Assembly: GCA_041746105.1 (NCBI GenBank)
Contig: JBGTHP010000039.1
Span: 34,201-98,200, forward strand
Reading direction: 5' to 3'
Origin: Acidimicrobiia bacterium
GTDB lineage: Bacteria; Actinomycetota; Acidimicrobiia; Spongiisociales; ZC4RG35
DNA length: 64,000 bases
Position 1 is the stretch's first letter. Every line of letters begins with the position of its first letter. The notes under the pieces are model-generated. The model worked only from the letters and a program-made list of their open reading frames with translations. It had not been told where the DNA came from and searched no databases. Below, one piece after another: positions 1,800 through 57,424 of this stretch. Made by a program: the position numbers and the translations under genes.

Positions 1800-1963
1800 G
1801 GCCAACGCCTCCTCGTGGGAAAAACTCGCTCGGTAAGAACTATACCGAACCGTGGGTTCAACCATTCGAACCCCCTCACCTTCCTCACATCGGCACAGGA
1901 ACGGGCTCGCTGAAGTGGTTGGATCGAGTTCGCGCATTCCCTTCCTGCGGGTAGCCTTGGATC

Positions 1964-2953
1964 ATGGCCGATCTGGCGGAACTGGTACCCATCCCCCGAG
2001 TGTGGGAACGAATGGAGCGCGTCGAACAGCGCCTGTTCGAGGCGACCACGTCAGGCGACGAACGGCTGACCGAGATCTCACAACATCTTCTCAACGCGGG
2101 CGGAAAGAGATACCGGCCGGTGCTTGCCCTCCTCGCCGCCGAGCTGGGCCCGAGTCCGGAACACCACCCGGTCGAAGCGGCAGTAGCGGTGGAACTGATC
2201 CATGTCGGGAGCCTCTATCACGACGACGTGATCGACGAGGCGGACACCCGTCGCGGTGCGGCCAGCGCCAACATCAACTGGACCAACACGGTCGCGATCC
2301 TGGCCGGTGACTTCCTCATGGCTCGCGCCTCGGAGACGGCGGCAACCCACCTCAGCCAAGAATCGGTCAGGCTTCTGGCAGCAACCTATGCCGAGTTGGT
2401 CGAAGGCCAGACCCGCGAACTCGGACTCGACTACGACCTCGACCACTCGGTGGGCGCCTACGAACACGTCATCTATCAAAAAACCGCCAGCCTGATTCGG
2501 ACCTCCGCCCGGCTGGGGGCGATTGCGGCCGGGGCTTCCGATCCAACGGTCGAAGCCGTGAGTACCTGGGCGGCAGAGGTGGGGATGGTGTTCCAACTCG
2601 CCGACGATGTCCTCGACCTCATCGCAACCTCGGACGTGCTCGGGAAACCCGCTGGATCGGACATCAGGGAAGGCAAATTCACCCTGCCCGTCCTGCTGGC
2701 GCTGGCAGGCCCGGAAAGCGAACGCGTGAGAAAGCTCCTCAAAGAGCCCATCCCCTACCGCGACGCCGCGGTCGATGAGGTCATCGAGATCGTACGCGGC
2801 GGCGGGTATTCGGGTGGCGCCTTGGCCGCCGCCCGTCAGCGGCTCGAAGTGGCTCGAAGCGCGATCGCCGGATTGGGAACACCCGAGGTGAGAGCCGTTT
2901 TTGAGCGAGTTGGATCGTATCTGGTTGACCGAGTCGAAGCGCTCGAATCCTGA
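1964..2953 (+). CDS. trans-polyprenyl diphosphate synthase (GGPP/heptaprenyl-type, IdsA family)
   Basis: 329 aa. First aspartate-rich motif is LYHDDVIDEADTRRG and second is FQLADDVLD. KRYRP and GKPAGSDIREGKFTLP are conserved. Confidence 0.85.
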   Translation: MADLAELVPIPRVWERMERVEQRLFEATTSGDERLTEISQHLLNAGGKRYRPVLALLAAELGPSPEHHPVEAAVAVELIHVGSLYHDDVIDEADTRRGAASANINWTNTVAILAGDFLMARASETAATHLSQESVRLLAATYAELVEGQTRELGLDYDLDHSVGAYEHVIYQKTASLIRTSARLGAIAAGASDPTVEAVSTWAAEVGMVFQLADDVLDLIATSDVLGKPAGSDIREGKFTLPVLLALAGPESERVRKLLKEPIPYRDAAVDEVIEIVRGGGYSGGALAAARQRLEVARSAIAGLGTPEVRAVFERVGSYLVDRVEALES

Positions 2954-2996
2954 GAAACAACTCCAGTCAGAGGGTTGAGGGGCCGAAACCCTCAGC

Positions 2997-4439
2997 ATGG
3001 ACCTTCAGTCCTTCTTCAGAGATGCAGTAGCCGCACAAATCAAGGAACTCGAGGTCGCGATCGACCTTCCTCCCGATGCTCCCGAGGTTGCCAACGCCCG
3101 GCGCGTAGCGCATTCGCTCAAAGGTTCCGGCACCACGTATGGATACCCGGAGATATCGCAGGCGGCCGCCGTCACCGAACAAGCCTCAGATGCCAGTTTC
3201 AGCAAGTCGGTGGAGTCGCTGATCGAGGTGTTGACCAAAGCGATCGAAACGGACTCCAAGGTGGCGGTGCTCGTGGTCGACGACGATCCGGTTTTCGGCG
3301 AGATGCTGGTGGCCAAGTTGTCGAGTCCCCTCCTCAGGGTTGAACACGTCGGCTCGCGGGCCGAGGCCGAATCCCATCTGGACAATTCCCAGCCACAGGT
3401 GATCGTGCTGGACCTCTTCCTTCCCGACGGAGATGGCCGCGATCTCCTCGCCCAACTGGTCCAATCCCGTCCCGGTCTCACTGTCATCGCCACCAGTGCC
3501 ACGGACTCGAACGAGCTCCGGGATGCGGTCATGGCCGCCGGCGCCACTGCGTTTCTCACCAAACCGGTGAACATCAGGGCCCTCACCGATCTCGTCGAAC
3601 AGCTTCTCCGCCAGCGGGCAGAGGGACGCCACACCCGCGACCCGCTCATCGAGGTCTATGACGACCTTCGACGGACCGCTCCGACCGTGACCGTCGCATC
3701 AATCGTCCCCGAATTGCACGGGCCGGGCGGGCTCGATCGGCGCAACGACTCCAGTGTTCTCGACGACATGGTCAACGCCCTCGACGAACTGTTGCCGCCC
3801 GACATCGCAATCGGAAGGTGGTCGCCCACCGAACTGATCGGATTCACCGATGGAACGTCCCAAGAACTCCTCGAGACTCTCGATCGGGCTCGGCTCCGGC
3901 TGAGGAACCGGCTACAGCAGCCGGACGGTTCCGTCGCAACCTTCTCCGCCGGGGTTGCGCCCGGCAGCTCGAGCCTGCTCGATTCGTACGGACACGCCCG
4001 GGAGGCCGCCAGTGCGGCCGCGGCCGGCGGCGGCGACAGAGTTGTTCTCGCCAGCTCCACGGGCAGGGCCAACACCGTCCTCCTCGCGGAAGACGATCCA
4101 CTGACCGCGGCACTGGTGGTCCACCGTCTCGAGCGAGAAAGCCTCGACGTCACACACTGCACCGATGGCCTCACCGCCATCGAAATCGCATCCCAGCGAG
4201 AGTTCGGACTGATCATTCTCGACATCCAAATGCCGGGTCTCGACGGTTTCGGGGTGCTGGCGGAGCTCAGACAACGACCGGCCTATTTGGAGACTCCCAT
4301 CATCATCCTGACGGCGGTCGGCAGCGAACGTGATGTCGTGCGCGGTTTCGAACTCGGGTGTGACGACTATGTGCTCAAGCCTTTCAGCCCGGCCGAACTG
4401 ACGGCCAGGCTCAGGCGATTCACCAGGAAGGCCGTATGA
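2997..4439 (+). CDS. hybrid signalling protein: HPt - REC - degenerate GGDEF - REC
   Basis: 480 aa. N-terminal HPt motif AHSLKGSGTTYG. REC1 has VLVVDDDP...VLDLFLPDGDG...TKP. The middle domain aligns to GGDEF but carries RWSPTELIGF where RYGGEEF is expected, and keeps the C-terminal VATFSAGVA...GGGDRVV signature. REC2 has VLLAEDDP...ILDIQMPGLDG...KPF. Confidence 0.7.
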   Translation: MDLQSFFRDAVAAQIKELEVAIDLPPDAPEVANARRVAHSLKGSGTTYGYPEISQAAAVTEQASDASFSKSVESLIEVLTKAIETDSKVAVLVVDDDPVFGEMLVAKLSSPLLRVEHVGSRAEAESHLDNSQPQVIVLDLFLPDGDGRDLLAQLVQSRPGLTVIATSATDSNELRDAVMAAGATAFLTKPVNIRALTDLVEQLLRQRAEGRHTRDPLIEVYDDLRRTAPTVTVASIVPELHGPGGLDRRNDSSVLDDMVNALDELLPPDIAIGRWSPTELIGFTDGTSQELLETLDRARLRLRNRLQQPDGSVATFSAGVAPGSSSLLDSYGHAREAASAAAAGGGDRVVLASSTGRANTVLLAEDDPLTAALVVHRLERESLDVTHCTDGLTAIEIASQREFGLIILDIQMPGLDGFGVLAELRQRPAYLETPIIILTAVGSERDVVRGFELGCDDYVLKPFSPAELTARLRRFTRKAV

Positions 4440-4813
4440 AGTTCCTCTTCTGCGACGACGACCCCGTGATTCGGTACCTCCTCGAAATCCTTCTGGCAAA
4501 GCGGGGAGGCCACGAGGTAGTCCCGGTAGCCGACCCGTTCAAAGTTGTCGCCAATGCGATCGCCAGCGAACCCGACATGATCCTCCTCGATTACGTGATG
4601 CCTGGCATGACAGGACTGCAGGTCGTAGAGAGCCTGAGGGCGCACGATGAGACATCCAACACACCGGTTGTGTTTCTCACCGGCCGCTCCGACATCGCCG
4701 ATGGGCCGTCGCTCGATGCTTTGGGAGTCATGGGCGTCATCGAAAAACCCTTTGACACCGCCACCTTCATCGACCGCCTGATCGCCATGGCCGGTCGCGC
4801 CGCCACTCGCTGA
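4436..4813 (+). CDS. single-domain response regulator (CheY-like receiver)
   Basis: 125 aa. FLFCDDDP, LLDYVMPGMTG and EKPF motifs. Start overlaps the upstream stop (ATGA). Confidence 0.8.
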   Translation: MKFLFCDDDPVIRYLLEILLAKRGGHEVVPVADPFKVVANAIASEPDMILLDYVMPGMTGLQVVESLRAHDETSNTPVVFLTGRSDIADGPSLDALGVMGVIEKPFDTATFIDRLIAMAGRAATR

Positions 4814-4872
4814 TCTCCTTCATCCGAAGCGGATTACGCCGACAGGGTTGGTGACCACCAACTGGAGCACAT

Positions 4873-5520
4873 GTGGCAGGGTCCGCCCTGGTTGAAGCCA
4901 AGACGAGTCGCAACGGGAGCTACCATGCCGGTTCTGCGCGTGCGAGCTCGCTCAGTCGCCACGACTATCGGACTCCGTCGAAATTCACGGCGGCATTCGT
5001 CAGGGAATTCGACGACTTCCACAAAGAATTCATGGCAGTGCTGTCACAGCGCTACACCCGCGAACTCAAATCGCAGATAACTATCGAGCACCTCAGCACC
5101 GAGCAGCTCACGTATGACGCCTACGTCCGCTCCATGCCCAATCCAAGCCTTCTCAACATCTTCGAGTTGGCCCCGCTTCCAGGTCGCGTCGTCTTCGAGA
5201 TGAGCCCCCAACTCGGGTTGGTTCTGGTCGATCGCCTCTTGGGTGGCCGCCCTGGCCGACCGGTCTCGCCGCGACCGCCGACCGTTCTCGAACAGACTCT
5301 GCTGACCACTCTCACCACCCACCCGATGGCAGCTTTCCAGGCCGCCCTCAGCCTGTTGGTCGACGTCGACCCACAGTTGGTACACACCGAGTTGAATCCT
5401 CAGTTCGCCCACGCCGCCATTGGCGGCCCTGGCACGTTTTCCGGGAGCCGTGTCATCTGTCTCCTCAACGCCCTCGTATTGGGTGCCGAAGAAGCCACGC
5501 ATCGCCATGAGCGCCTCTGA
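4873..5520 (+). CDS. fliM: flagellar motor switch protein FliM, N-terminal and middle (CheC-like) domains only. The C-terminal FliN/SpoA domain is missing.
   Basis: YDAYVRSMPNPSLLNIFELAPLPGRVVFEMSPQLGLVLVDRLLGG aligns with the E. coli FliM segment YHEFARNLPVPTNLNLIHLKPLRGTGLVVFSPSLVFIAVDNLFGG. The ORF stops at 5520 where a complete FliM would carry ~90 more residues. The 3' end overlaps the fliA region 4 on the opposite strand. Confidence 0.65.
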   Translation: MAGSALVEAKTSRNGSYHAGSARASSLSRHDYRTPSKFTAAFVREFDDFHKEFMAVLSQRYTRELKSQITIEHLSTEQLTYDAYVRSMPNPSLLNIFELAPLPGRVVFEMSPQLGLVLVDRLLGGRPGRPVSPRPPTVLEQTLLTTLTTHPMAAFQAALSLLVDVDPQLVHTELNPQFAHAAIGGPGTFSGSRVICLLNALVLGAEEATHRHERL

Positions 5521-6184
5521 ACGGATCTGGGAGACCCTGGCCTCGGTGAGTCCGAGATCGCCCGCAATGTCTTGAAGGAGTTCCCCTTCGAGGTAGTACC
5601 GAGAGATGACTTCGGCCTGGACCGCCGGCAGATTGCGAATCGCCTCTACCAATGTGCCTCGCATCTCGCGCTGCTCAAGGGCGAACTCCGCAAGAAAATC
5701 CGCACGCTGCTCTTCGACCCGGTCGACGAGAGGGGAATCCTCGCCCTCGCTCTGCTGGTCCAGATGAAGCAGGGTCGAAGTAGTTGCCTGAGCCTGACGC
5801 CTGCTCAGTTCGGCGATGCTGATTCCGAGGAAAGATGCAAAGTTCTTCTGCAACCGGGGTCTTGCCATGCTGCTCTTCCAGACCGGACTGGGCCTGCTGG
5901 ATGTCACGAATATTGCGCCGGACCGAACGGCTCGCCCAATCTCGGGTCCTCGTGCTGTCGATGATGGCGCCGCGAATACGAATTGCGGCGTGCCGTGCAA
6001 AAGGGATGCCGGACTCCGGATCAAAGCGACGGCTGGCCTCGACCAAGCCGAGAGCGCCTGCGTTCCACAACTCGGCTCGGTCCACGTGACGTGGATAACG
6101 GGCCGAGACCTCGGCGACAATGTGGCCGACGAGATCCATGTTGTCGGTCACAAGCTGATTCTGTTGGTGGCTTGTGAGGCTCAT
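5461..6184 (-). pseudogene. fliA: flagellar sigma factor FliA/WhiG (sigma-28 class). A 1-nt indel at ~5838-5840 splits regions 2 and 3-4, and there is no in-frame stop after region 4.
   Basis: Frame A (ORF 5675..6184) carries region 2, LVGHIVAEVSARYP...ELWNAGALGLVEASRRFDPESGIPFARHAAIRIRGAIIDSTRTRDW. The frame of ORF 5044..6120 carries regions 3-4, LGISIAELS...LPAVQAEVISRYYLEGELLQDIAGDLGLTEARVSQIRSEALMAMRG. The join occurs at GAAGAACTT-T-GCATC, where one extra T in a T3 run breaks EEL/ASFLGI. The region-4 frame then stays open to 5044, fully antisense to fliM. Confidence 0.7.
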
Positions 6185-6389
6185 GTTTCCCTACTCCTAC
6201 GATGCGGTTTCGATTCGCTGTGGTAATCGGGAAACCGGCGATCAATCCTTGAGGACCATTTAGAAATAGTCATTGGGTTGTCGGGGGAAACGCTTAACCA
6301 CCCTTTCGACGGGCCGACCACGCCGGCCGCGGTGCACGATCTACCAATTCACGACTTGACCGAAGCCGATTGGGGCGGACAGGAGAATC

Positions 6390-6833
6390 GTGACCATCAC
6401 ACACAATGCTCTCGCCGCACCCACGATCGACAAGCTGGTGGCTTTGCTCAACGGCGAAAGAAAAGTCCTCGAGCAACTGCTTTTCAGGATCACCGAATTC
6501 GAGTTGTTGCTGGCCGGCGCAGAACACCGGTTTGTCGCGAAGTCGCTCGACGAAATCGACCACGCCGAGAACGATCTCGCCATGTATGAGTTGAGCAGGG
6601 CGATTGTGGTCGAGACGCTGTTGCCACCCAACGTCCCACCAACGGCTACATCCCTCTTGGACATCTGTGCCGATCACCCCCAGTTGATCCGGGCGCTCGA
6701 TGACCTCAAAAGACTCGTTGCCGCCATCGAGCACGGACGCGAGCGGTGTCGCCGGCTCTCGCAGGAAAGAGTGGAAAAAGTCGGCACGGCCGAGCGCCGC
6801 CTCCAGCATCAGGGATTCGGCCCCTACGGCTGA
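6390..6833 (+). CDS. FlgN-like flagellar export chaperone family protein, paralog of the gene at 11193..11705
   Basis: 147 aa with GTG start and an AGGAGA Shine-Dalgarno. Shares the [12 protein letters not shown] motif (compare ERRLLEQLLFKL in the second copy). Helical and acidic. Divergently placed from fliA. Confidence 0.4.
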
Positions 6834-7161: not shown

Positions 7162-8301
7162 CTACATATCGGTTTCGGTGACAGTGGATGCGACTCGGGG
7201 GTCGATGCCGAAAATGTGGACGAGGTCGGCCGGTTCTCGGATCGGGCCCGTTGGAAGATGTCGCGAGTCCCAGGCGCATGCCGCCGCAATCAGCTGCGCC
7301 TCAGGAGTGCTGGCCCGGCCCATGTAGCCGGATTCGCGCAGTAGCGGACTGTCGGCGATGCCGCGTTGCCTCGGCAGAGTGGCCACCATCCTGACGAGTT
7401 CATCGTTGTGATTCACTCCGCTGCACCGGAACTCGGTACCGCCGAAAGTGAGCGAATGCAACCACGACGCGGCCTCAAGGCGCGACCGGTCCTTTTCCGG
7501 GAGGTGAATCGAGTGTTGACGCACGATCTCCACCATCCGTTCGGTGTGACCGGGGTTTCGCCCATCTCGCTCGGCCGAGATGATCCTGGCCTGCGCTTCG
7601 AGTTGGAGGGCGGCCCCGTGTTCCCGAAACCACGACCTGATCGCTTCTGTGTAGAGCGCTGCTGCCGCTATCGCTGGCAGGAGAGCCCACGAGGTGGTTG
7701 CGGGCACTGCCCATGCGAATGCAACCGCACCAGCGGATACGCCGATATCGCGGACCTGAGCCTTCCAGTAGTCGGCGCCTCCGGGCCAACGGTCATAGAG
7801 CAACCTCACGGAGATGGCGGCGAGCGGATAGTTGACCAGGACGCCGATCGCAGTCACTGCGGCCGCTCCCATCAGAACCAGCACCAGGTTTTTTGCGACC
7901 ACATCGACGGTCGGGGCGGCAGATATCAGTGCACCAACCACCAGCCATCGCGTCGACAGAATCCCATCGTTGAGAGCACAGAGCCTCCAGCCCTGCCGCC
8001 TGACCGCGGCCCACGCGATCAGTTTGGCCTGTATGACCAGCACGATCGGCGCCAACGGTCCGGCGACGAAACCGGTCGCCATCATGATCGGCGTGGAAGG
8101 GTCCAAAACAAATCGGTTCGGCTCCCTGACCATCAACAGCGACGACCCGACAGCCACCAACGTCAATCCGATGATTGCAAAAAACGTCGCAGGAGAAGGG
8201 ACCACAACCGAGATCGATCCGCCAATACCAGCGGCGACACCGCTGAATAACACGCCCAAAAGCGCGAACACAACGGGCCGCCGCTCAGTCGATGCGGTCA
8301 T
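7162..8301 (-). CDS. polytopic membrane protein (~7 TM) with a C-terminal degenerate HD/HD-GYP-like domain (7TMR-HD-like)
   Basis: 379 aa. Hydrophobic N-terminal ~270 aa. The C-terminal segment [35 protein letters not shown] resembles H-x-ERV...AALLHDIGK of HD domains but has HS instead of HD. Lies between fliW and csrA. Confidence 0.5.
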
Positions 8302-8517: not shown

Positions 8518-8934
8518 TCAACCGACGGGAATCTCTGCTCTGAGAGGGTATTCCTGGTTCGTGAGAACGATCTGGCGGCCCTTGCGAGTATGGGCGTTGA
8601 CTATGAACGGACCGAGCAAGTTCATGAAAGGGGTTGCGCCCTCAAACGAGATCGAACAGAACACCAAAGCATCTTCTGCGGCGGTGAGCTCCAGGCCCGC
8701 TTGTTCCAGGTCGGACAATTCCGGGGCGTAGTCCGGAAAAAACAGCCAGGGCACTGCAACGACCATGGCCACGTCGGGGTCGTCCATATCATGGAAGATC
8801 TGAAACTCGCCGGTCTCCACCAGATCGGTGAGTGCAAAATTGCGTGCATCAGGAAAGCCGGGAACGCCTTCGTCAAAAATCAGCACATCGCTCATTGGAG
8901 CGGCCAGGCTAGCGTCCGCTTCTGCTTCGATCAT
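8518..8934 (-). CDS. fliW: flagellar assembly factor FliW (CsrA antagonist)
   Basis: MIEAEAD...MSDVLIFDEGVPGFPDARNFAL...QIFHDMDDPDVAMVVAVPWLFFPDYAPELSDLEQAGLELTAAEDALVFCSISF...LTNQEYPLRAEI match FliW. The ATG at 8932-8934 overlaps the flgL stop. Confidence 0.85.
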   Translation of the reverse strand: MIEAEADASLAAPMSDVLIFDEGVPGFPDARNFALTDLVETGEFQIFHDMDDPDVAMVVAVPWLFFPDYAPELSDLEQAGLELTAAEDALVFCSISFEGATPFMNLLGPFIVNAHTRKGRQIVLTNQEYPLRAEIPVG

Positions 8935-9822
8935 CGCAGGAACTGGGCGAGGGAAGGCTGAAGTGATCGGGCGAGGGCCCCCTGCCCCGCCTGGTCGGCG
9001 GTTTCCTGCATCTGGAGTTCCATGATCGCCGCCGCGAGATCGGTGTCTTCTGTCTCTGACAACACAGTCCGCAGATTCACATCGTCGGCCTGGGCTCTGA
9101 ACAACGCCTGTTCGATGCGATTGAAGTGGCGCCAAGCTTGGCGCGCCCTACGAGCAGACGGTCGAGTCCGGTATGGAGATCTGCGATGGACTGGCCCAAA
9201 CCGGCCGAATCCTGGCTCTGGACCTGGGTCAGAACCGTCTCGAGAAGAGTGAACAGGTCCTGGCCGGCGTTGAACCCAAAAACCTCGCCTGCGGTGACGT
9301 TGACCTGGACCTTCTCGTTTTCGCCGATTCGCCCGGTCACCGCACCCGCGTCGCCTTGATAGGTCCAGGTACCGGCAACTTTCGCCACCGCATCACCAGA
9401 ACTGAAGCCTCCGAACAGTGGCCGGCCGCCGGTCTTGGCGTTTGCCATCGACGTGATGGAACTGAGGCGTTCCCCGACCTCGGCTGCGATGGCGATGGCG
9501 CCGTCGGGTCCACTTGTGCCGTTGCGCGCAGAGATCACCAACTCGCGTACTCGCTGGATTGCGTCACCGATGCTTCCGAGACGGGCGTCGGCGAGTTCGG
9601 CCCATTGGCGTCCGTCATCCGCGTTCTTTTTTGCCTGGGCATTGGCGGCGAGAGCGGTACGATCCGGAGCGAGCGGCTCATGCCTGCCGGGTCATCTGAG
9701 GCGACTCTGATCCTTTTGCCGGTAGTCAGATCGGTTTGGGCGCGCTCGAAGTCGTTCAGCCGATCGTTCATCCGGCGCACACCGAGATCGGTCATCATTC
9801 GATTGGTGATTCGGTTGGTCAT
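8931..9822 (-). pseudogene. flgL: flagellar hook-associated protein 3 FlgL, disrupted by two frameshifts at ~9657-9664 and ~9118-9126
   Basis: The N-terminus MTNRITNRMMTDLGVRRMNDRLNDFERAQTDLTTGKRIRVASDDPAG (ORF 9535..9822) shifts by -1 into the frame holding TALAANAQAKKNADDGRQWAELADARLGSIGDAIQRVRELVISARNGTSGPDGAIAIAAEV...RPLFGG (ORF 9077..9541). After ...VGRAKLGATS a second shift is needed to reach the conserved C-terminus NRIEQALFRAQADDVNLRTVLSETEDTDLAAAIMELQMQETADQAGQGALARSLQPSLAQFLR, which ends at the stop at 8931. Confidence 0.75.
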
Positions 9823-9827
9823 TCAGA

Positions 9828-11193
9828 TCACCTTCCCACTATCCCTGTGCGATTGATCAGGACATCCAGCATCTGGTCGACGGTTGTTATCACGCGGCCC
9901 GCAGACTCGTACATCCGCTGGTATTCCATGAGCGAGACCATCTCTTCGTCGACCGATACCCCATGGACCGACATGCGTGACCTTTCAGCGGCCTCGGCCA
10001 GACCCTGATGGGTGGCCGATGCCATGAGCAACGACGAAACGTCGCGCCCGAGGCCGGTGACGATCGATGAGAAGAAGTCGGGAAGCGACGTTGTCCCACC
10101 GGAGGCCGAAAGGCTGTTCCTGAGGTCCGCGAGTTGGGCTGCGATTCCGCCGTCAAAGTCGGGAAATGGTGGCCCCGCAGACGTGGCGGCAGCCAATTGC
10201 GCCGGATCGGTGATGGCGACGGTCATCGTCTTCGCCGGCGAGCCAGGATTGAAGGAGAACAATGGACCCCCCGGTCCGCCGGTGTGGTAGCCGCCGGCAT
10301 GGATGCCGTTCATGGCGTTGGCGAGATCCACCACGAAGGAATCCAACTTGGAGGTGAGATTGGGGAGATCGGTTGTGAAAGACTGCTGCAGTCCGCGTAG
10401 TTCGCCGCCCGGTGTCACGGCGATGCCGGATGGATGCAGGATCTGACCGGTGGACGGATCAGCGGTCAACGCCCGAGAACTCGAGCCTGAAACCAACGAG
10501 ATTCCGCCCAACAAGACCTGGACTCCGCCGAACTCGTCTCGGATCGTTCGAACTCCGATGATCGACGAAAGACGGTCCACCAACATGTCGCGCTGATCCA
10601 TCAGGTCGTTAGGTGTGCCGCGGGCGGCGCCGCTCTCGAGAATGGCACCGTTCAGATTGGCGACCTCCGCCAAGAGCTTGTTGACGTCGTCGACCTTGCC
10701 CAGGATCGAACTCTTGACCTCGGTCCGCAACGCGTCGAGTTCGCCGGCAACCTGTTGAATTCGGGAAGCCACGGCGTTGAGTTGACCGATTACACCCATC
10801 CGGGTGGCGCTGTCGTTTGGTGACAAGCTCAGTTCCTCGAACGAATTCGAAGAGTCGGTTGACTTCGACCAGGATTCCCCGGTCGGGTTCACCGAGGGCG
10901 GCCTCGGCCCTCGTGAGGAAGTTCGCCCTGATTCCGGTCTCTGATGCCCCCGAAATCGAAGCTCTCACCCTGGAATCGAGAAACTGGTCCCTCGAGCGAG
11001 AAATGCCAACAACATCGACGCCGGTGCCCACCTGACCAGAAGGCGTACTCCGGGGCATGCGGGCTCGAAGATCGACTCGCTGCCTGGTGTATCCATCGGT
11101 CGATGCGTTCGAGATGTTGTGCGAAGTTGTATCGAGCCCACGTTGCGCGGCCCGCAGACCGCTCAAAGCCACGTGTAGTGCTGTGAAATCCAT
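9828..11193 (-). pseudogene. flgK: flagellar hook-associated protein 1 FlgK, disrupted by a frameshift in the CCCC run at 10877-10880
   Basis: N-terminal frame (ORF 10609..11193) is MDFTALHVALSGLRAAQRGLDTTSHNISNASTDGYTRQRVD...EAALGEPDRG. C-terminal frame (ORF 9828..10892) is ESWSKSTDSSNSFEEL...EMVSLMEYQRMYESAGRVITTVDQMLDVLINRTG. The frames join only if one G is restored in CGGGG-GAATCC. Confidence 0.75.
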
Positions 11194-11705
11194 CAGAACA
11201 CCTCATCGATCTTGGTCGGACCTGAATAGACACTCTCGTGCCGGGTGCCGCGAGCGTCATAGACCTCGATCGGGTGCTGGCCGAGAAGCACGCCGAGAGA
11301 CTCTGCGACGTTTCCGAGGGCCAAAGACGCCAGCCTGCGGTTGTCAAGGGTCGCGTGTTCGATCTCGGTGGTTAGGCGCTGGAACTGGTCACGGTGGTCT
11401 TCGAACATGGTTCGGTACGGCTCCGGCGCCCACGACGACAAAAACCCGAGGGTGACCTTGGCCGGAGGCTGACCGATGGCGTCGGCGAGAGCATTGGCTG
11501 CAGAGCCGCGGTGAGCCTCGCCTGCACGAATCCTGGCGATGGCCGAGTCGACCTCACTCATGGCCTGGGGGACAAAACGTGCCTCGTCGGCTGCCAGCAC
11601 GAGACGCGCCGCGACCAACTTGAACAGGAGCTGTTCGAGTAGACGTCGCTCGGCCGAAAGGGTGTCGGCCAGCTCAACCAACTGGCGCCGATTCGGAATG
11701 CTCAT
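11193..11705 (-). CDS. flgN: FlgN-like flagellar chaperone, placed upstream of flgK as in flgN-flgK-flgL operons
   Basis: MSIPNRRQLVELADTLSAERRLLEQLLFKLVAARLVLAADEARF. Position and shared motif with 6390..6833. The ORF extends to 11816, but the ATG at 11705 is preferred. Confidence 0.5.
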   Translation of the reverse strand: MSIPNRRQLVELADTLSAERRLLEQLLFKLVAARLVLAADEARFVPQAMSEVDSAIARIRAGEAHRGSAANALADAIGQPPAKVTLGFLSSWAPEPYRTMFEDHRDQFQRLTTEIEHATLDNRRLASLALGNVAESLGVLLGQHPIEVYDARGTRHESVYSGPTKIDEVF

Positions 11706-11796
11706 AGCAATGCCTGTCGACCACCCGCGCCGGGGCAAAAGGTGTCGTTTTCGAAGGGCGGTCAGGGCACCGTTGTCCACTACCGTGCTGTCCACA

Positions 11797-12351
11797 ATGG
11801 ACATGGACGAGCTCAAGCAGAAACTCGAAGAAGCCGAGACCTCGCTGGCTCAACTCCGGCTCGTCATGGACGGGGTCGGCACCGTCGACCTGTCTACCGG
11901 AATCAACAATCGCAACGGGGTGCTGGAAGCAATCGAGCGCGGGCGCCGGTGGATGAATCGACGCGGTGACATGTTCGGCGTCATCGTGGTCCGCTTCATG
12001 AACATGCCGGTCATCGATCTCGACATCCCCGACCATGTTGAGTTGGTCAAACACCTTGCCGCCACAATTGGCGCAGGCGTCAGGGAAGTCGACGACGTGG
12101 GCCGGCTCGACGACATGTCGTTCGCGATTGTGCTGGCCGACGTCAAACCCGGGGCAATCAGCGTGGTGGTGGATCGTGTCATGGCACAGATCGAAGCCTC
12201 CGGCGAAACCCTTGAGCGCGCCGGCGGGGTGTTCCGGCTGGCAGCAATCGAGTTGCTCAGCAGCAGCCACTCCTCTGATGTGATCCTCGATGCCACCGAG
12301 CGCCTGCTGGCCAAGTCCGCCGACAACGGTTGGGCCGGCGCCCAGCTCTGA
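11797..12351 (+). CDS. degenerate GGDEF-domain protein (DDMSF replaces GGDEF) with a short N-terminal coiled coil
   Basis: TGINNRNGVLEAIERG...GVIVVRFMNMPVIDLDIPDHVELVKHLAATIGAGVREVDDVGRLDDMSFAIVLADV...ERAGGVFRLAAIELLSSSHSSDVILDATERLLAKSADNGWAG aligns along a full GGDEF fold. The active-site GG(D/E)EF reads DDMSF. Confidence 0.6.
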   Translation: MDMDELKQKLEEAETSLAQLRLVMDGVGTVDLSTGINNRNGVLEAIERGRRWMNRRGDMFGVIVVRFMNMPVIDLDIPDHVELVKHLAATIGAGVREVDDVGRLDDMSFAIVLADVKPGAISVVVDRVMAQIEASGETLERAGGVFRLAAIELLSSSHSSDVILDATERLLAKSADNGWAGAQL

Positions 12352-12429: not shown

Positions 12430-12690
12430 ATGATCCGGCTGCACCGCATTCGCGGCGAAGAGATGTTTCTCAATGCCGACCTCATCGAATCGATGGAGGT
12501 CACTCCCGACACCGTGCTCACGCTCATCGATGGGCGGAAAATGGTGATCGCCGATGACCCCAATGTCGTTGTCGATGAGATCGCGCGGTTCAGGGCTCGA
12601 GTTTTGTGCGCCGCAGATGAGATGCGCAGCGGCGGCGGGACGGCCGCCGAAGTGGTGCGTTTGGTCCGGTCGGAACCCGAGTCGGACTAG
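12430..12690 (+). CDS. flbD: flagellar protein FlbD
   Basis: MIRLHRIRGEEMFLNADLIESMEVTPDTVLTLIDGRKMVIADDPNVVVDEI matches the FlbD consensus MIKLTRLNGSEFYLNPDLIEFIEATPDTVITL.NGKK. Start taken at the internal ATG at 12430. Confidence 0.7.
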   Translation: MIRLHRIRGEEMFLNADLIESMEVTPDTVLTLIDGRKMVIADDPNVVVDEIARFRARVLCAADEMRSGGGTAAEVVRLVRSEPESD

Positions 12691-17188: not shown

Positions 17189-18142
17189 TTAGAAGAGGAA
17201 AGGCAGAAAACGGCGTCGGACTCGCTCGCGATACTCGAAATACCCCGGAAACATCAGGGTCAGGGCTCGTTCCTCGAGCAGGGACTTTCTGTAAAGAACA
17301 AGGACCAGGGCCCCGAGTGGAACGGCCGGCCAAACACTTCCGGCCAGCACAGTCATCGCCAAGCTGCCCAATATCACACCCCCGTAGATCGGATGGCGAA
17401 CCAGGCGGAAAGGGCCACGGACAACCATCGCCGCACCCGATCTCGGTTCAGGCAGGGCCGACAGGTTGCTGCCGAGGACGATCACGGCACCTATGACGAG
17501 GGCGGAGCCAAACGCCGCCACCGCCACACCAATACCGCTTCGGATCGGAGTCAATGGCCTTTCGAGAAGCAGGAATGCAGTGACCGCAACTGCGCCGATC
17601 AGCACCAGCTGAGCCATGACCAGGATCGGCCCTAGCGCACCGATCGATGGAGGCCGAACCTCCCAGTCGCCAATGAAACGGAACACCCCACCCGAAGGAA
17701 CCTCTTGGATGGCGGCCTCGGCGGTCGTCCCATCACCCACAGGGGCAGTTGGCCACACTTCGATCAGTGGCTCGAGCACAAATCGTCGCCTGCTCGCACG
17801 GGGATGGGGAATCTGAACCGTGGCCGTTTCTACCGGGTCCCCTCGATGGGCGATGATATCCAGATCGAGGGTGCGGGGACCCCACTTCTCGTTGCGCACC
17901 CGACCGTGCTCGATCTCGATTTCGATGAGTTCTTCGAGCAGGGACTCGGCATCCAGATCCGTTTCGAGGACCGCGACCGCGTTCAAGTAGGGCCCTTGAT
18001 CCGGGCCGCCAACCGGGTCGGTCTCAAACAAAGAAGAGACCCCCACCACCGGGGATATTCGTCGCAGATGAGCGAGGCCGGAGCGCATGTACTCCAGGCG
18101 GTCGCCGAGGTTTGATCCGAGACCGATCGCGACCCGAGTCAT
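17189..18142 (-). CDS. folK: HPPK (FolK) fused to a C-terminal ICMT/PEMT-like membrane methyltransferase domain
   Basis: N-terminal ~155 aa is FolK: MTRVAIGLGSNLGDR...SSLFETDPVGGPDQGPYLNAVAVLETDL...WGPRTLDLDII. The C-terminal ~150 aa holds 4 TM segments and the motif RGPFRLVRHPIYGGVILG...LLEERALTLMFPGYFEYRERVRRRF, typical of isoprenylcysteine carboxyl / phospholipid methyltransferases. ATG at 18140-18142 overlaps the folB stop. Confidence 0.75.
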   Translation of the reverse strand: MTRVAIGLGSNLGDRLEYMRSGLAHLRRISPVVGVSSLFETDPVGGPDQGPYLNAVAVLETDLDAESLLEELIEIEIEHGRVRNEKWGPRTLDLDIIAHRGDPVETATVQIPHPRASRRRFVLEPLIEVWPTAPVGDGTTAEAAIQEVPSGGVFRFIGDWEVRPPSIGALGPILVMAQLVLIGAVAVTAFLLLERPLTPIRSGIGVAVAAFGSALVIGAVIVLGSNLSALPEPRSGAAMVVRGPFRLVRHPIYGGVILGSLAMTVLAGSVWPAVPLGALVLVLYRKSLLEERALTLMFPGYFEYRERVRRRFLPFLF

Positions 18143-18498
18143 CGCCGGCGGTGTATTGAGACCGATACGTCCCCGAAGGCGACCGGAATGGGTGCTGATG
18201 GTTTGTGCACGGTCACTTCGACTGCCTCGATCCGGCGATCGGCCAAAACCAGGTCGGCGACACGACCGGCAACTCGTTCGATCAACGACCATTGCTCGCC
18301 GGCCACGAGATCGTGAATCGATTGCGCCAGGGCTCCATAGTCGACGGTGTCGGTGAGCGTATCGGAAGCGCCGGCCTTGGACAGGTCCAGGGCGACCTCG
18401 ACATCCACCAGGAACAGCTGCCCTGCGGTTCGCTCTTCCGGGAGCACTCCGTGACGAGCAAAAACCTCGATTCGCTCGATCCTGATCCGATCGGTCAC
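18139..18498 (-). CDS. folB: dihydroneopterin aldolase
   Basis: MTDRIRIERIEVFARHGVLPEERTAGQLFLVDVEV. 119 aa. Confidence 0.9.
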   Translation of the reverse strand: MTDRIRIERIEVFARHGVLPEERTAGQLFLVDVEVALDLSKAGASDTLTDTVDYGALAQSIHDLVAGEQWSLIERVAGRVADLVLADRRIEAVEVTVHKPSAPIPVAFGDVSVSIHRRR

Positions 18499-20391: not shown

Positions 20392-22314
20392 TCAGTGACG
20401 GGACGGCTCGGTCTGCTCAGCAGCAGCAATTCCACCGTTGCTCTGGGCAGATTCACCGGGCAGTTGAATCCGCAAGGAGCCGCTGTTGACATGCTCCCAT
20501 TTCGGGACGTCAAAGAGCAGCTCGGCCAGTTCGTGGCGATCGATCGTCTCGCGTTCGAGCAGCGCTTCGGCCAGTCGGTCGAGCGAGCCGCGGTGGGTGC
20601 TCAGGATCTGACGGGCCTCTTCGTGAGCTGCCGTAATCAACGCCCTGACCTCTTCGTCGATCTTCGAGGCGACATCGTCCGAATAGTCGGCCTGGCGGTT
20701 GTAGTCACGTCCAAGGAAGACCTCGCCACTGGATTGACCATATTTCATCGGTCCCAGCAGGTCGCTCATCCCGTACTCCATCACCATTCTGCGAGCAGTA
20801 CGTGTTGCCTTTTCGATGTCATTGGAGGCCCCGGTCGAAGGATCCGAGAACACGATCTCCTCTGCAGTACGTCCGCCGAGCGCATAGGCAAGTTCATCGA
20901 CCATCTCGCTTCGACGCTTGTAATACCGGTCTTGAGTCGGCAGGGCCAGCGTGTACCCGCCGGCTCGCCCGCGAGGAATGATGGTGACCTTGTGGATGGG
21001 ATCGACGTTGGGCAGGGCAAACCCCACCAGAGCGTGACCGCCCTCGTGATAAGCGGTGATACGGCGCTCTTCCTCGGTGACGATTCGTGATCTTCTTTCA
21101 GGTCCTGCGATCACTCTGTCGATCGCCTCGTTGAGTTCATCCATCCCGATCTGCGTCTTGCGGCGGCGCACCGTCAACAACGCAGCCTCGTTGATGAGGT
21201 TGGCCAGATCGGCACCGGTGAATCCTGGAGTCCCTCGCGCCACCGACTCGAGATCGATGTCGTTGCCAAGAGGTTTTCCCTTGGCATGGACATCGAGAAT
21301 TGCGTGACGTCCCTTGATGTCGGGGCCGTCGATGGTGATCTGGCGATCGAAACGTCCTGGTCTCAAAAGAGCTGGATCGAGAATGTCTGGTCGGTTGGTG
21401 GCAGCCATGACGATGACACCCACATTTGCCTCGAAGCCATCGAGCTCGACCAATAGCTGGTTGAGCGTCTGCTCTCGTTCGTCATGCCCTCCGCCCAGGC
21501 CGGCGCCACGGTGACGGCCAACCGCGTCGATTTCGTCGATGAAAATAATGGCCGGAGCCGATGCCTTCGCCTGTTCGAACAAATCTCGAACACGAGACGC
21601 TCCGACACCTACGAACATCTCGACAAAATCCGATCCGGAGATCGAGTAGAAGGGAACACCGGCCTCGCCGGCAACCGCCTTCGCCAACAGGGTCTTGCCG
21701 GTTCCGGGGGGACCAAACAGCAACACACCCTTGGGAATCTTGGCTCCCATCGCCCGGTACTTGTCGGGGTGCTTGAGAAAATCTCTGATCTCTTCTAGCT
21801 CTTCGATTGCCTCTTCGAGACCCGCCACTTCCTTGAACGTGACTTTGGGTTGGTCCTTTGACACCGTCTTGGCCTTGGCTTTGCCGAACTGCATCACCCG
21901 GTTTCCAGAACCCTGCATCTGGGTGAAAAAGAACACCATCAGACCGATCAAGATCAGCCACGGGAGAAGCTGCAACAAATAGTCGGCAAAACCCGGCGGC
22001 TGGTTGTCGACTCGATATTCCACGCCTGCGGCATCGAGGCGATCTTCGACGGATTCGCCAAAACGGTCACCGATCTCCACGAAGAAATCGACTCCATCGG
22101 CCGCCGCCGACGAATCGACGTAACGGCCCTCAACTCGTTCCGAGCGGTTCAGAATTGTGACCGACTCGACCTTGTCAGCCTCGATTTGTTCGTAGAACTG
22201 GTTCAGTGTCAGCTCTTCTGGACCCGCAACCTGACCAAGCCATTGTGAAGCGGACACCACGAGCACACTGATGACAAGGCCATACACGAGCAACGTTCTA
22301 AGAGATCGATTCAC
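20392..22314 (-). CDS. ftsH: ATP-dependent zinc metalloprotease FtsH (copy 1, syntenic with folE/hpt)
   Basis: 640 aa. [45 protein letters not shown] zinc site. Confidence 0.95.
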
Positions 22315-45083: not shown

Positions 45084-45196
45084 GGACGTTCAGAGTACGC
45101 ACGTCCCGTCCGCGCTGTACTGTCCTTGCGCCGATTCACCCTCGGAAACTCTCGGGTGGTCTCATTCCCCGCTGCCGTCGGTAGAGTTTTACTGGA

Positions 45197-47146
45197 ATGA
45201 CAACGCGCAATCCGTCCAAAGATTCAAAAGACTCACCGCCCGGATGGCGTGTCGAGGGCATGCCCAAAGACAGGCCGAATCAAGACAAAAAGCCACAAGG
45301 CCTGTTTCCCACTCCTCCCAATAAGTGGATCTGGGTGGTGATGGCCGGCCTGCTGCTGTTCAACGTGGTTCTGTCCAACACCTTCCTCAAAGGTGAAGAA
45401 GAAATCACCATCAGCTACGACGAGTTTTTGACCCAAGTCGACGTCGGCAATGTCGACTCCGTCACTTCGACCGGGCAGACGATCGCCGGTGTCCTCAACG
45501 AATCGATCTCCGATCCGACCGACGAGTCGGTTACGAGCACACGGTTCACGACCGTCCGGCCGACGTTCGCCGACGATGAACTCTTCGCCACGCTCCGCGA
45601 CAAAGGCGTCACGTTGAGTGCTGTCGATCCCGACGCGCCTACACCGTTCTGGCAGGCCGCTCTGTTCAATCTCCTCCCGTGGGTCATATTCATCTGGTTG
45701 ATAGTCGCGCTCAACCGGCGCGCCGCCGGCATGATGGGAGGCCTGACCGGGATCGGACGTTCTAAGGCAAAACGCTACGACGAAACCGGCAAACGCACCA
45801 CGTTCGCCGACGTGGCCGGGATCGAAGACGCAGAAGAAGAACTCGTCGAAATCGTCGACTTCCTCAAGAACCCCCAGAAGTACACCGCTCTCGGGGGACG
45901 CATCCCCAAAGGTGTTCTCCTTTCCGGTCTTCCGGGCACCGGTAAAACACTCCTGGCGAAAGCGGTTGCGGGGGAAGCCGACGTCCCGTTCTTCTCGATG
46001 TCGGCGTCCGAATTCGTCGAGATGGTCGTCGGCGTCGGGGCGAGCCGCGTGAGAGACCTGTTCGCCCAGGCCAAACAGGTGGCCCCCGCGATCATCTTCA
46101 TCGACGAACTCGACGCGATTGGTCGTCAGAGGGGCGGCTCTATGAGTATGGGCGGACACGACGAAAGAGAGCAGACTCTCAACCAGATTCTGACCGAGAT
46201 GGACGGGTTCACCGGCTCGGAGGGCGTAATCGTCATTGCCGCCACGAACCGTCCCGAAATCCTCGACGCCGCGTTGTTACGGCCTGGCCGCTTTGATCGC
46301 CAGGTTCCAGTCAGCCCTCCCGACCAGCGCGGGCGCAAGGAGATCCTCGACGTCCATTCGCGCAAGGTGCCCCTAGGCGTGGACGTCGACCTTGATGCGA
46401 TCGCATCGACGACACCGGGGATGGTTGGTGCCGACCTTGCCAACCTCGTGAACGAGGCGGCGCTGATGGCGGCAAGAAGGGGCCACGAAAAAGTGATGCT
46501 CGGTGACTTCACCGATGCGCTCGAGAAGGTTGTCCTTGGCACGGAGCGCCGCATCATGATGAGCCAGGAGGAGAAAGAACGCACCGCCTATCACGAGTCC
46601 GGCCACGCACTGTTGGGGATGCTCCAGCCGGGCGCAGACCCGGTGCGCAAGATCTCGATCATCCCCCGCGGCCGAGCCCTTGGGGTGACCTTCCAGTCGC
46701 CTGACTCCGACAAATACAGCTATTCGGAGGAGTATCTGCGAGGTCGCATAATTGGAATGTTGGGGGGTCGCGCCGCCGAGGACGTGGTGTTCGGTGCGGT
46801 CTCGACCGGAGCCGAAAACGACATGGTGCAGGCCACGAGCCTTGCCCGCAACATGGTCGCCCGTTGGGGGATGTCGCCGGAGATCGGCCCCGTCACCCTT
46901 CTCGACGATCGGATGGTCGACGGGTTGGGACGCCCGATCGTGGCCGAGGCGACACTCAAATTGGTCGATACCGAGGTTCGGCGGATCATCGACACCTGTT
47001 ACGCCGCTGCGGTAGAACAGCTCAAAGCCGAACGCGACAAACTCGACTCTTTGACAGAGGCTCTTCTCGCCAAGGAGACGCTGGAAGAAGCCGAGGCTTA
47101 TCAGGCGGCCGGGATTCCTCGACCGCAAAAACCACAGCTCGCCTGA
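45197..47146 (+). CDS. ATP-dependent zinc metalloprotease FtsH (second paralog)
   Basis: 649 aa. N-terminal [47 protein letters not shown]. Confidence 0.9.
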
Positions 47147-52539: not shown

Positions 52540-52609
52540 CGGCTGGTGAGACCGTTGTCGCCGAAGATAGACCAGGCGCAGGCGCGCCCCGATACGCCGA
52601 GGAGATGAA

Positions 52610-53617
52610 GTGGCATACAGAGCCGAGTACATCTGGATCGATGGCAGCGAGCCAACCAAAAAGCTGCGCTCGAAGACAAAGGTGGTTCCCGACGGTGAGG
52701 AGGCGCCGATCTGGGGTTTTGATGGCTCTTCGACCAACCAGGCTCCAGGCAACAGCTCGGACTGCGTATTGCGGCCGGTCAAGATCGTTCCCGACCCGAT
52801 CCGAGGCGGCGACGACGTGCTCGTTTTATGCGACGTCCTGACCGTTGAGATGGAACCACACCCGTCCAACACGCGGGCACCGTGCAAAGAAATCGCCGAC
52901 AAGTACGCCCATCACGATTCTTGGTTCGGGATCGAACAGGAGTACACCTTCTTCAGAGACGGACGCCCTTTTGGTTTCCCCCAAGGCGGTTACCCGGCAC
53001 CGCAGGGTGGCTACTACTGCGGCATCGGTTCCGACGAGATCTTTGGCCGGCCAGTGGTCGAGGCGCACACGACAAATTGCCTCAATGCAGGTCTCAACAT
53101 TTCTGGAACCAATGCGGAAGTCATGATCGGACAGTGGGAGTTTCAGATCGGTCCGTCAAGCCCCGTGGACTGCGCCGACGATGTTTGGTTGGCCCGGTGG
53201 CTCCTATACCGGACCGCCGAGGACTTCGACGTCTCCGCACATCTCGACCCCAAACCGGTCAAAGGCGATTGGAACGGCGCCGGAGCCCATACCAATTTCT
53301 CGACCAAGGACATGCGGGAGTCCTACGAGCCTTGTGTTGCTGCCGCCGAGGCCCTCGGTAAACGCCATGACCTGCATGTGGCCAATTACGGCGCCGAAAT
53401 CGAACATCGGCTCACCGGTCTCCACGAGACCGCCCCCTGGACGCACTACAGCTACGGCGTTTCTGACCGCGGTTCGTCGGTCCGGATTCCATGGCAGGTC
53501 GCCAAAGAAGGCAAGGGCTACATCGAGGATCGACGGCCGAACGCCAACATGGACCCCTACGTTGTCACCCGTCTGATCACCGAAACCGTGTGTGGCACGG
53601 CCGACGGCGATCTCTGA
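52610..53617 (+). CDS. glnII: glutamine synthetase type II (eukaryote-like GSII)
   Basis: 335 aa. EYIWIDG, CDV, NAEVMIGQWEFQIGP, GAGAHTNFS, SVRIP signatures of GSII. Confidence 0.9.
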   Translation: MAYRAEYIWIDGSEPTKKLRSKTKVVPDGEEAPIWGFDGSSTNQAPGNSSDCVLRPVKIVPDPIRGGDDVLVLCDVLTVEMEPHPSNTRAPCKEIADKYAHHDSWFGIEQEYTFFRDGRPFGFPQGGYPAPQGGYYCGIGSDEIFGRPVVEAHTTNCLNAGLNISGTNAEVMIGQWEFQIGPSSPVDCADDVWLARWLLYRTAEDFDVSAHLDPKPVKGDWNGAGAHTNFSTKDMRESYEPCVAAAEALGKRHDLHVANYGAEIEHRLTGLHETAPWTHYSYGVSDRGSSVRIPWQVAKEGKGYIEDRRPNANMDPYVVTRLITETVCGTADGDL

Positions 53618-57401: not shown

Positions 57402-57424
57402 GACCAGCGACACCAGGCGGTCGG

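Follow-up and report, generated by a model that had tools for sequence, protein, structure and literature searches.

Receiver (REC) domains that lead into a GGDEF domain are known from DgcR (6zxb), PleD (2v0n, 1w25) and WspR (3bre), which are active cyclases with I-sites and possess neither a histidine phosphotransfer (Hpt) domain nor a C-terminal receiver. Catalysis can also be lost: PopA of Caulobacter, with the order REC-REC-degenerate GGDEF, is a noncatalytic regulatory or adaptor module, and both PopA and PssE are degenerate GGDEF receptors that bind cyclic di-GMP (c-di-GMP) via an I-site, retained in PopA as RxxD. Here we analyse a stretch of 64,000 nucleotides from an Acidimicrobiia bacterium (contig JBGTHP010000039.1; hereafter the window), in which a gene for a 480-amino-acid protein with the order Hpt-REC1-pseudoGGDEF-REC2 (hereafter the hybrid) is followed by a gene for a stand-alone receiver (REC3) and by a part of fliM. 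We propose that the two proteins form a phosphorelay hub that lacks a kinase and is built on a pseudo-cyclase scaffold; the hub would serve flagellar control in this lineage and has no intact switch target in the window; in our judgement, belief and doubt are about evenly balanced for this reading.

A Foldseek search of the PDB with the AlphaFold2 (AF2) model of the hybrid returned DgcR, PleD and WspR as the best matches, both for the REC1-GGDEF part and for the GGDEF-like domain alone, and in all three the alpha-5 linker of the receiver enters the GGDEF domain as it does in the hybrid. FimX (3hva) is likewise a motility regulator with a noncatalytic, structural GGDEF domain and a receiver-like domain, but it senses c-di-GMP by a degenerate EAL domain, controls type IV pili, has no Hpt domain and carries a receiver that is not phosphorylatable. 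The HptB-HsbR-HsbA-HsbD system of Pseudomonas (PMC5085249) also consists of an Hpt-centred relay tied to a GGDEF protein and to FliA/FlgM control; however, its components are separate proteins, HsbD is an active cyclase, a partner-switching module is involved and the architecture is not homologous. Literature searches for Hpt-REC-GGDEF, REC-GGDEF-REC and similar terms turned up no description of the domain order found here, in agreement with a preliminary description of the window.

Architecture of the hybrid and its companion receiver

The Hpt-REC-GGDEF*-REC order given in the preliminary description was borne out by the coordinates of the open reading frame (ORF), by Pfam, by the AF2 model and by profile homology (Table 1). 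Pfam recognised the Hpt domain at residues 6-73 (PF01627, 34.7 bits, cut-off 24.6) and two Response_reg domains at about residues 91-203 and 361-472 (combined E 1.8e-49), and found neither HisKA nor HATPase_c in the hybrid. In the model, the N-terminal region folds into a four-helix bundle (helices 3-21, 29-47, 51-61 and 68-87) with the HxxKG motif on helix 2. No linker separates helix 4 from strand beta-1 of REC1. By general receiver topology, this junction should keep His39 and Asp139 of one chain apart, and transfer would therefore probably take place in trans or to REC2 or REC3.

Conservation was counted in an alignment of 79 homologs of the hybrid, in which every phospho-site is conserved in at least 96% of the sequences. 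The phosphotransfer His39 is kept in 76/79; D96, D97, D139 and K189 of REC1 are invariant (79/79); and in REC2, whose acidic residues are E365/D366/D367, D409 and K461 are each kept in 77 homologs and T439 in 76. The corresponding residues of REC3 are D7-D9, Asp52, Thr82 and Lys104. All three receivers possess the acidic pair, the acceptor Asp, the Thr/Ser and the Lys, and phospho-acceptance is predicted from these residues.

REC3, whose start codon overlaps the stop codon of the hybrid gene in an ATGA and is preceded, 7 nucleotides upstream, by the Shine-Dalgarno sequence AGGAAGG, is predicted to be translationally coupled to the hybrid. The earlier pairing of the hybrid with the adjoining receiver is supported by this overlap and by its conservation across phyla, including a fusion of the two proteins in Fidelibacterota. 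On the other hand, the designation of this receiver as CheY-like holds only in so far as it is a single receiver. It scored 41 bits against the NCBIfam CheY model NF007901 (cut-off 189), and the solved structures it matched are generic receivers. At the aromatic-switch position it carries Val, and this position is Val or Ile in every lineage examined, including Gemmatimonadota. CheY orthology was rejected on the score and on the Val. REC3 resembles CheY and Caulobacter Cle (PMC5677366), single-domain receivers with FliM-level control, but it is not an ortholog of CheY: it has Val at the Tyr106-equivalent position, it lacks the conserved Arg-rich C-terminal tail, and the local FliM has no docking peptide.

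No kinase, cheW or flagellin gene was found in the 64-kb window. The relay had been called self-contained, which is incorrect because neither the hybrid nor the window holds a kinase. When an Hpt profile was compared with solved natural Hpt domains, the P1 domain of CheA was closest, although weakly so (E 1.6e-4 to 3e-3), and LuxU and BarA followed at 0.01-0.04. We regard this CheA-P1 likeness, found at the level of profiles, as only a lead.

A hairpin, GAGGGTT-N10-AACCCTC, is located at positions 2970-2993 and ends 3 nucleotides 5' of the ATG of the hybrid; the sole purine-rich, Shine-Dalgarno-like stretch before this gene lies in the loop and 5' arm of the hairpin. It could exert translational control of the hybrid, or it could mean nothing. 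A scan of positions 1800-6400 for promoters and terminators gave none above shuffled expectation, and an Rfam scan found one tRNA only and no c-di-GMP riboswitch.

Table 1. Coordinates of the hybrid gene, its domains and motifs, the companion receiver and the broken flagellar genes in the window
Feature	Position	Strand	Remarks
Hybrid gene, Hpt-REC1-pseudoGGDEF-REC2	2997..4439	+	480 aa; ORF, Pfam Hpt and two REC
Hpt four-helix bundle, aa 3-87	3003..3257	+	His39 of AHSLKGSG at nt 3111-3113
REC1, aa 89-208	3261..3620	+	Acceptor Asp139 at nt 3411-3413; Pfam Response_reg
Degenerate GGDEF fold, aa 214-352	3636..4052	+	
Clade-specific loop P238-E-L-H-G-P-G-G245	3708..3731	+	In place of the canonical DxFKxxND..GH segment
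R274-W-S-P-T-E-L280, position of RxGG(D/E)EF	3816..3836	+	Alignment and hhalign
REC2, aa 360-477	4074..4427	+	Acceptor Asp409 at nt 4221-4223; Pfam 361-472
REC3, stand-alone receiver, 125 aa	4436..4813	+	Acceptor Asp52 at nt 4589-4591; Pfam Response_reg 74 bits
fliM remnant, codons 1-182 of about 315	4873..5418	+	ORF continues into unrelated sequence to 5520
Breakpoint, fliM codon 182 tail-to-tail with fliA codon ~255	5418..5422	.	Homology ends
fliA-type sigma factor remnant, 3'-truncated, one frameshift (extra T near 5838)	5422..6184	-	
flgL, two frameshifts (near 9650 and near 9110)	8931..9822	-	Flagellin_N at N-terminus; lower bound approximate
flgK, one frameshift (near 10900)	9828..11193	-	Split over two overlapping frames

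A GGDEF fold that has lost its sites

A domain search thus gave the Hpt and Response_reg matches that had been expected, but not PF00990, which the window protein did not reach at the gathering threshold; the sole Pfam signal in the middle region was a sub-threshold match to GGDEF_GdpP (16-18 bits, cut-off 30). Homology to GGDEF was instead recovered with profiles. A profile built from 30 degenerate-clade sequences only, 10 of which match PF00990 individually, matched solved GGDEF domains, with FimX 3hva as the best (E 4.8e-5). An hhalign comparison of the degenerate clade with GGEEF-bearing relatives gave a probability of 99.8% and an E of 4e-28 over 150 columns. These relatives (~500 amino acids) carry a PF00990-recognised GGDEF domain at the same position as the middle region of the hybrid, and the GRWSPTEL of the window aligns with their ARWGGEEF column block. 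By profile comparison, the middle region (about residues 214-352) is GGDEF-derived. Its alpha-beta-alpha-beta-beta-alpha-beta-alpha-beta topology is that of a palm-like GGDEF fold, with the signature hairpin between beta-2 and beta-3. The fold had been called full-length, which does not apply: the domain comprises ~140 amino acids and has no N-terminal DxLTGLxNR element, of which only Arg214 remains.

Judged from the alignment, the canonical active site and the I-site of this pseudo-GGDEF domain are gone. RWSPTEL sits exactly at the position of RxGGEEF, with S276-P-T-E-L280 in place of GGEEF; both Gly positions vary within the clade, while Glu279 is kept in 71/79 homologs and W275 in 78/79, so that the signature was correctly read as noncatalytic. 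The AK..GR phosphate clamp of helix alpha-4 has become AA..GG in the window and is lost throughout the clade. The position of the base-binding Asn, which is equally gone throughout the clade, falls in a new loop, with Gly in its place. Within this PE[TL]HGPGG loop, E239 and H241 are kept in 76/79 homologs, G242 in 74 and G244 in 72. In the hhalign comparison, E239 occupies the column of the metal-binding Asp that closes strand beta-1. Neither the GG(D/E)EF signature of active diguanylate cyclases nor their substrate contacts (Asn/Asp, Lys/Arg clamp, beta-1 Asp) are present; the last is replaced by the conserved Glu239, a change that alone would speak neither for nor against activity. An I-site of the PopA/PssE type, RxxD five residues before the signature, is also missing: the window has L266-P-P-D269, 74/79 homologs carry Leu, Val or Ile instead of the Arg, and the Asp is retained in only 30/79. 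The AF2 model (predicted local distance difference test, pLDDT, 91.5) supports the integrity of the fold, but the I-site does not survive, as RxxD is LPPD by alignment. Trp275, Asp296, Arg299, Arg303 and Ser317 are nearly invariant among the homologs.

Continued cyclase activity from an unorthodox active site is hardly credible under these circumstances. The fold is intact and a Glu occupies both the metal position and the fourth position of the motif; however, the motif has lost its two glycines and its third-position acid, its positions vary across the clade, and the Lys/Arg pair and the N-terminal substrate element are missing as well. An active cyclase was therefore rejected on the loss of motif and contact residues, as was a PopA-like I-site receptor on the loss of the I-site.

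The preliminary description suggested that the degenerate domain senses c-di-GMP or another nucleotide, in which case it would gate the phosphorelay. Degenerate GGDEF domains can indeed be receptors, as in PopA and PssE, the acidic residues E239, D251 and E279 stand at canonical positions beside a conserved glycine-rich loop, and c-di-GMP components surround the loci of the relatives, e.g. HD-GYP genes in L001, L087 and L095. Against this, the canonical sites have been given up (LPPD at the I-site; GG, the Lys/Arg pair and Asn lost clade-wide), the best sequence match among solved structures, the FimX GGDEF domain, is itself degenerate, and a better candidate, a protein that keeps RxxD, is encoded nearby at 11539-12351. 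We consider the sensor improbable.

Origin, distribution and selection

Full-length relatives of the hybrid (33-40% identity, 99-100% coverage) occur in Gemmatimonadota, Planctomycetota, Fidelibacterota and Marinimicrobia, and they keep both GGEEF and RxxD. These GGEEF relatives (P0078-P0120), on which the literature search found no study, share with the window hybrid the domain order and a REC3-type receiver that follows or is fused; in the 642-amino-acid P0078 of Fidelibacterota, REC3 is fused to the C-terminus of the hybrid. They differ from it in their PF00990-recognised domain with GGEEF and RxxD, and in being accompanied by a kinase and HEAT/GT2/TPR-YaiO genes instead of flagellar genes. 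Their cluster comprises Hpt, REC, a PAS or CHASE3 histidine kinase, the hybrid, REC3, sometimes REC-Hpt-REC, HEAT, GT2 and TPR/YaiO, and was found in three phyla: Gemmatimonadota, Fidelibacterota and Planctomycetota (L004 5096-14089, L005 4319-12381, L096 5414-13437). From its gene content it looks like an uncharacterised c-di-GMP-controlled polysaccharide system; the combination of GT2 with TPR/YaiO presumably resembles the Nfr system. Because the cluster and the fusion in other phyla share the pairing, the hybrid and REC3 are taken to be an old unit, which most likely first supplied a polysaccharide synthase with c-di-GMP.

By its sequence relationships, the window hybrid is a degenerate offshoot of this multi-phylum Hpt-REC-GGDEF-REC cyclase family. 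It is not a rearranged PleD, as had been suggested: the NCBIfam PleD model NF007135 gave 122 bits (cut-off 474), and the receiver alone matches. Homologous architectures proved not to be common in the degenerate form (~13 clusters), but an existing multi-phylum cyclase family does have the same order.

The extent of the degenerate form was established by an exhaustive hidden Markov model search, in which the degenerate-domain profile was run against 1.84 billion representatives at 50% identity. It retrieved 11 clusters at E<=1e-30 and 15 at E<=1e-10. The 13 best clusters are these 11 together with P0090 and P0077, both near 1e-20; in 12 of the 13 the domain lies at about residues 180-370 of proteins of 441-495 amino acids, the 13th is a fragment of 113 amino acids, and weaker matches are ordinary GGDEF proteins. 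At 90% identity the family comprises roughly 80 clusters, and all that have a source name are labelled Acidimicrobiia. A narrower alignment of the middle domain yielded 7 loci in metagenomes. A contig scan with the full-length alignment gave at least one true relative (L007), and its patterns were generic receiver motifs. The degenerate clade, as delimited by these searches, is small, architecture-locked, restricted to Acidimicrobiia and uncharacterised.

The ratio of nonsynonymous to synonymous substitution rates (dN/dS), calculated against the 81%-identical relative in L006, was 0.094 for the hybrid, 0.109 for the pseudo-GGDEF domain and 0.106 for the neighbouring polyprenyl synthase gene (pps); dS is saturated and the ratios are rough. 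At family positions conserved in at least 90% of homologs, the window hybrid has a single private change (V436I), a count no higher than in relatives with intact fliM-fliN. Despite its lost sites, the pseudo-GGDEF domain is, by these measures, under purifying selection and not drifting.

Gene neighbourhood in Acidimicrobiia

Acidimicrobiia-type loci have the gene order clpC(-), pps, hybrid, REC3. Among the ten that extend past the hybrid, REC3 adjoins it in nine, and flagellar-gene synteny was likewise counted in 9/10. REC3 is followed by fliM-fliN in L001, L002, L006, L087 and L091, by fliM-fliN-cheW and then HD-GYP and flagellins in L095, and by a convergent FliA-type sigma factor gene in L003, L088, L089 and L094. 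HD-GYP genes occur near the hybrid in L001, L087 and L095. L090 departs from this pattern: beyond its hybrid, tblastn detected no REC3 and no flagellar gene.

FliM of the P0063 lineage (L095 12007-12963) begins MAGPTLSQGEIDRLL, a canonical CheY-docking peptide (LSQGEIDRLL). In the window (4873), L006 (3407), L087 (~9310) and L091 (~9266), FliM is devoid of LSQxEIDxLL, and there is no room for it upstream. Docking of REC3 to FliM in the manner of CheY is thus unlikely even where fliM is intact, because FliM of this sub-lineage lacks the docking peptide. With respect to equivalog score, aromatic switch and FliM docking peptide alike, REC3 does not qualify as CheY.

These observations also bear on the possibility that the module is a phosphate sink or buffer, in which the receivers and the Hpt domain would act as a drain or a store for phosphoryl groups of a kinase pathway, chemotactic or other, and would set signal kinetics while having no separate output, with the pseudo-GGDEF domain as an inert spacer. 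Such a role would suit three intact receivers and one Hpt domain with no output domain of recognisable activity, the missing aromatic switch residue of REC3 in every lineage, and the weak CheA-P1 likeness of the Hpt domain. Moreover, L095 combines cheW in the gene string with the FliM docking peptide, implying a separate true CheY pathway that could be modulated. Nevertheless, an inert spacer is not expected to evolve at a dN/dS of 0.11 with clade-invariant PExHGPGG, W275, R299 and R303, and the module is also found in the non-chemotactic polysaccharide clusters of other phyla. We therefore regard the sink as unlikely, although it deserves serious attention.

Beside the flagellar genes, the window encodes a second, stand-alone GGDEF-like protein at 11539-12351 (+), which matches PF00990 below the cut-off (E 4e-4), keeps an R-E-V-D I-site and has DDMSF in place of GGDEF; flbD lies 3' of it at 12430-12627. 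Homologs are encoded in L003 (11022-11630, 202 amino acids), L089 (7560-8108) and L094 (12883-13437); that of L003 reads SDETF and adjoins fliA, and the gene is conserved beside the FliA-type sigma factor gene and flbD. From its motifs, this protein is a more plausible c-di-GMP receptor than the domain of the hybrid. That it might act on the sigma factor in the manner of RsiG-WhiG is only a speculation by analogy.

Decay of the flagellar genes in the window

The fliM gene was correctly placed 3' of the module, but only its first 182 codons are there. The ORF at 4873-5520 covers positions 2-152 of the 192 of the Pfam FliM profile, with FliMN_C absent, and it does not qualify as a complete FliM. 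Homology to L006 ends at 5418 (codon 182) for the amino acids and at 5417 for the nucleotides; L006 continues with a 315-amino-acid FliM and a 283-amino-acid FliN, while the 64-kb window contains neither fliN nor the second part of fliM. On the opposite strand, homology to fliA begins at 6184 and breaks off at 5422, at residue 255 of 279, and a tblastn search with the sigma factor of L003 splits into frames -1 and -2 at 5831-5850. Three-frame translation placed the N-terminal, middle and C-terminal parts of flgL in three different frames. In flgK, Flg_bb_rod lies in the ORF at 10609-11193 and FlgK_D1 with Flg_bbr_C in another frame, in the ORF at 9828-10892. The recovered loci contained no intact flgK/flgL homologs by which these frameshifts could be located. 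The junction between fliM and fliA reads GCCGCC-ATT-GGCGGC, a short palindrome, and represents either a deletion of 3' fliM, fliN and 3' fliA, or an assembly join.

In the flagellar locus, csrA, fliW, two flgN-like genes and flbD are apparently intact. About 45 non-flagellar genes across the window, including clpC, pps, lysS, coaX, panC, folK/P/E, two ftsH, tilS, topA, holB, tmk, polX and a gene for H+-pyrophosphatase, show full Pfam domain coverage, from which alone their intactness was judged. Random sequencing error is an unlikely source of the frameshifts, since four of them fall within 5.5 of ~57 kb of coding sequence, the chance of which is ~8e-5 if errors are uniform. Because the indels are clustered in flagellar genes, we read them as genuine flagellar decay, and the pattern suggests that motility loss is ongoing in the source organism. 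Flagellar loss is common in Actinobacteria (PMC10746217). The fliM remnant has a dN/dS of 0.058 against L006, with no sign of relaxed selection, and its loss is therefore recent.

Consequently, a phosphorelay feeding the switch protein, as proposed in the preliminary description, cannot operate here: only the first 182 codons of fliM remain, fliN is missing, and frameshifts disrupt fliA, flgK and flgL. With its flagellar partners deleted or reduced to pseudogenes, the intact module in this genome was either orphaned recently or acts independently of flagella. Alternatively, the pair may already be non-functional here, a not-yet-disrupted leftover of the decaying flagellar regulon. The adjoining flagellar genes carry four frameshifts and one deletion in ~5.5 kb, and at the resulting 0.73 per kb the chance that 1.8 kb escape every lesion is ~0.27. 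However, only one private substitution (V436I) was found at highly conserved positions, and dN/dS against L006 is as low as that of pps, albeit averaged over a long, saturated branch. Overall, a leftover seems to us rather improbable.

Other genes of the window

Several further features of the window were recorded. Between csrA and fliW, positions 7162-8301 (-) encode a predicted membrane protein of 379 amino acids with no Pfam match, the C-terminal part of which has a degenerate HD-like motif (GHTERM); to judge from this motif, a 7TM-HD or HD-GYP-type protein may have decayed here. Two divergent FlgN-like chaperone genes lie in the locus at 6390-6833 (+) and 11193-11816 (-), the first of them below the Pfam cut-off. 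At 17189-18292 (-), HPPK (folK) is fused to a C-terminal PEMT/ICMT-type methyltransferase, and the same fusion (316 amino acids) occurs in L094. Two full-length FtsH paralogues are encoded within 25 kb, at 20392-22314 (-) and 45185-47146 (+). A supposed truncated glutamine synthetase at 52571-53617 was rejected, as the translation reads like a full-length GSII-type enzyme of ~340 amino acids. A T2SSE-family secretion ATPase is encoded at 56400-57662 (-); it is possibly a Tad/CpaF pilus ATPase, which hints at a surface-attachment system in an organism losing its flagella.

Proposed role of the module

The kinase-less phosphorelay hub can be envisaged as follows. In Acidimicrobiia, the cyclase domain lost its substrate, catalytic and I-site residues and stayed, under purifying selection, as a compact structural domain, and the gene pair settled in the order clpC-pps-hybrid-REC3, directly upstream of fliM-fliN (sometimes with cheW) or of a convergent fliA. 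An unlinked kinase would load phosphoryl groups onto the module; in view of the weak CheA-P1 likeness, a CheA-type kinase core is one candidate. The phosphoryl groups would then pass among His39, Asp139, Asp409 and Asp52 of REC3. Phosphorylation of REC1 may re-pack or dimerise the pseudo-GGDEF domain through the alpha-5 linker, as in DgcR, WspR and PleD. The output would be a protein-protein interaction, of REC3 or the hybrid with motility or FliA-dependent expression, instead of c-di-GMP synthesis. Within this scheme, we infer the source of phosphate, the direction of transfer, the scaffold or dimerisation role of the pseudo-GGDEF domain and the target.

Several points weigh against this hub. 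A tblastn search of the 64-kb window with four kinases from related clusters found no kinase partner. The link of the hybrid to flagella is one of gene neighbourhood only, and L003 and L094 carry just the FliA-type sigma factor, which could possibly have a non-flagellar role. CheY-like action of REC3 on the switch is doubtful given the missing FliM peptide and the missing aromatic residue of REC3. The PE[TL]HGPGG loop, together with the acidic E239, D251 and E279 at positions equivalent to catalytic or binding ones, could reflect residual or new ligand binding. Finally, the junction and the frameshifts could in principle be metagenome-assembly errors.

Significance

There is a slim chance of a more far-reaching outcome, namely that the PE[TL]HGPGG loop with E239/D251/E279 forms a new ligand-binding or catalytic site, and that the CheA-P1-like Hpt domain and the three receivers exert an unrecognised control of the switch or of FliA, independent of the CheY-FliM-N-peptide interaction. 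If this were true, a polysaccharide-controlling cyclase module would have been repurposed for motility control.

Proteins of c-di-GMP signalling in Actinobacteria have been counted with PF00990 (PMC10746217), and surveys of this kind will miss the domain of the hybrid. The family, a signalling component that occurs lineage-wide at the flagellar locus of Acidimicrobiia, therefore stays hidden from them. The loci can be arranged in an evolutionary series, from an active cyclase wired to a kinase and to polysaccharide genes, through a dead pseudo-enzyme that is under selection near fliM-fliN or fliA, to an orphan beside decaying genes. Nothing known is overturned by these findings; the evolutionary series and the conserved replacement loop merit specialist attention, and the family is a tractable case for the role of a GGDEF fold after the loss of all its nucleotide sites.

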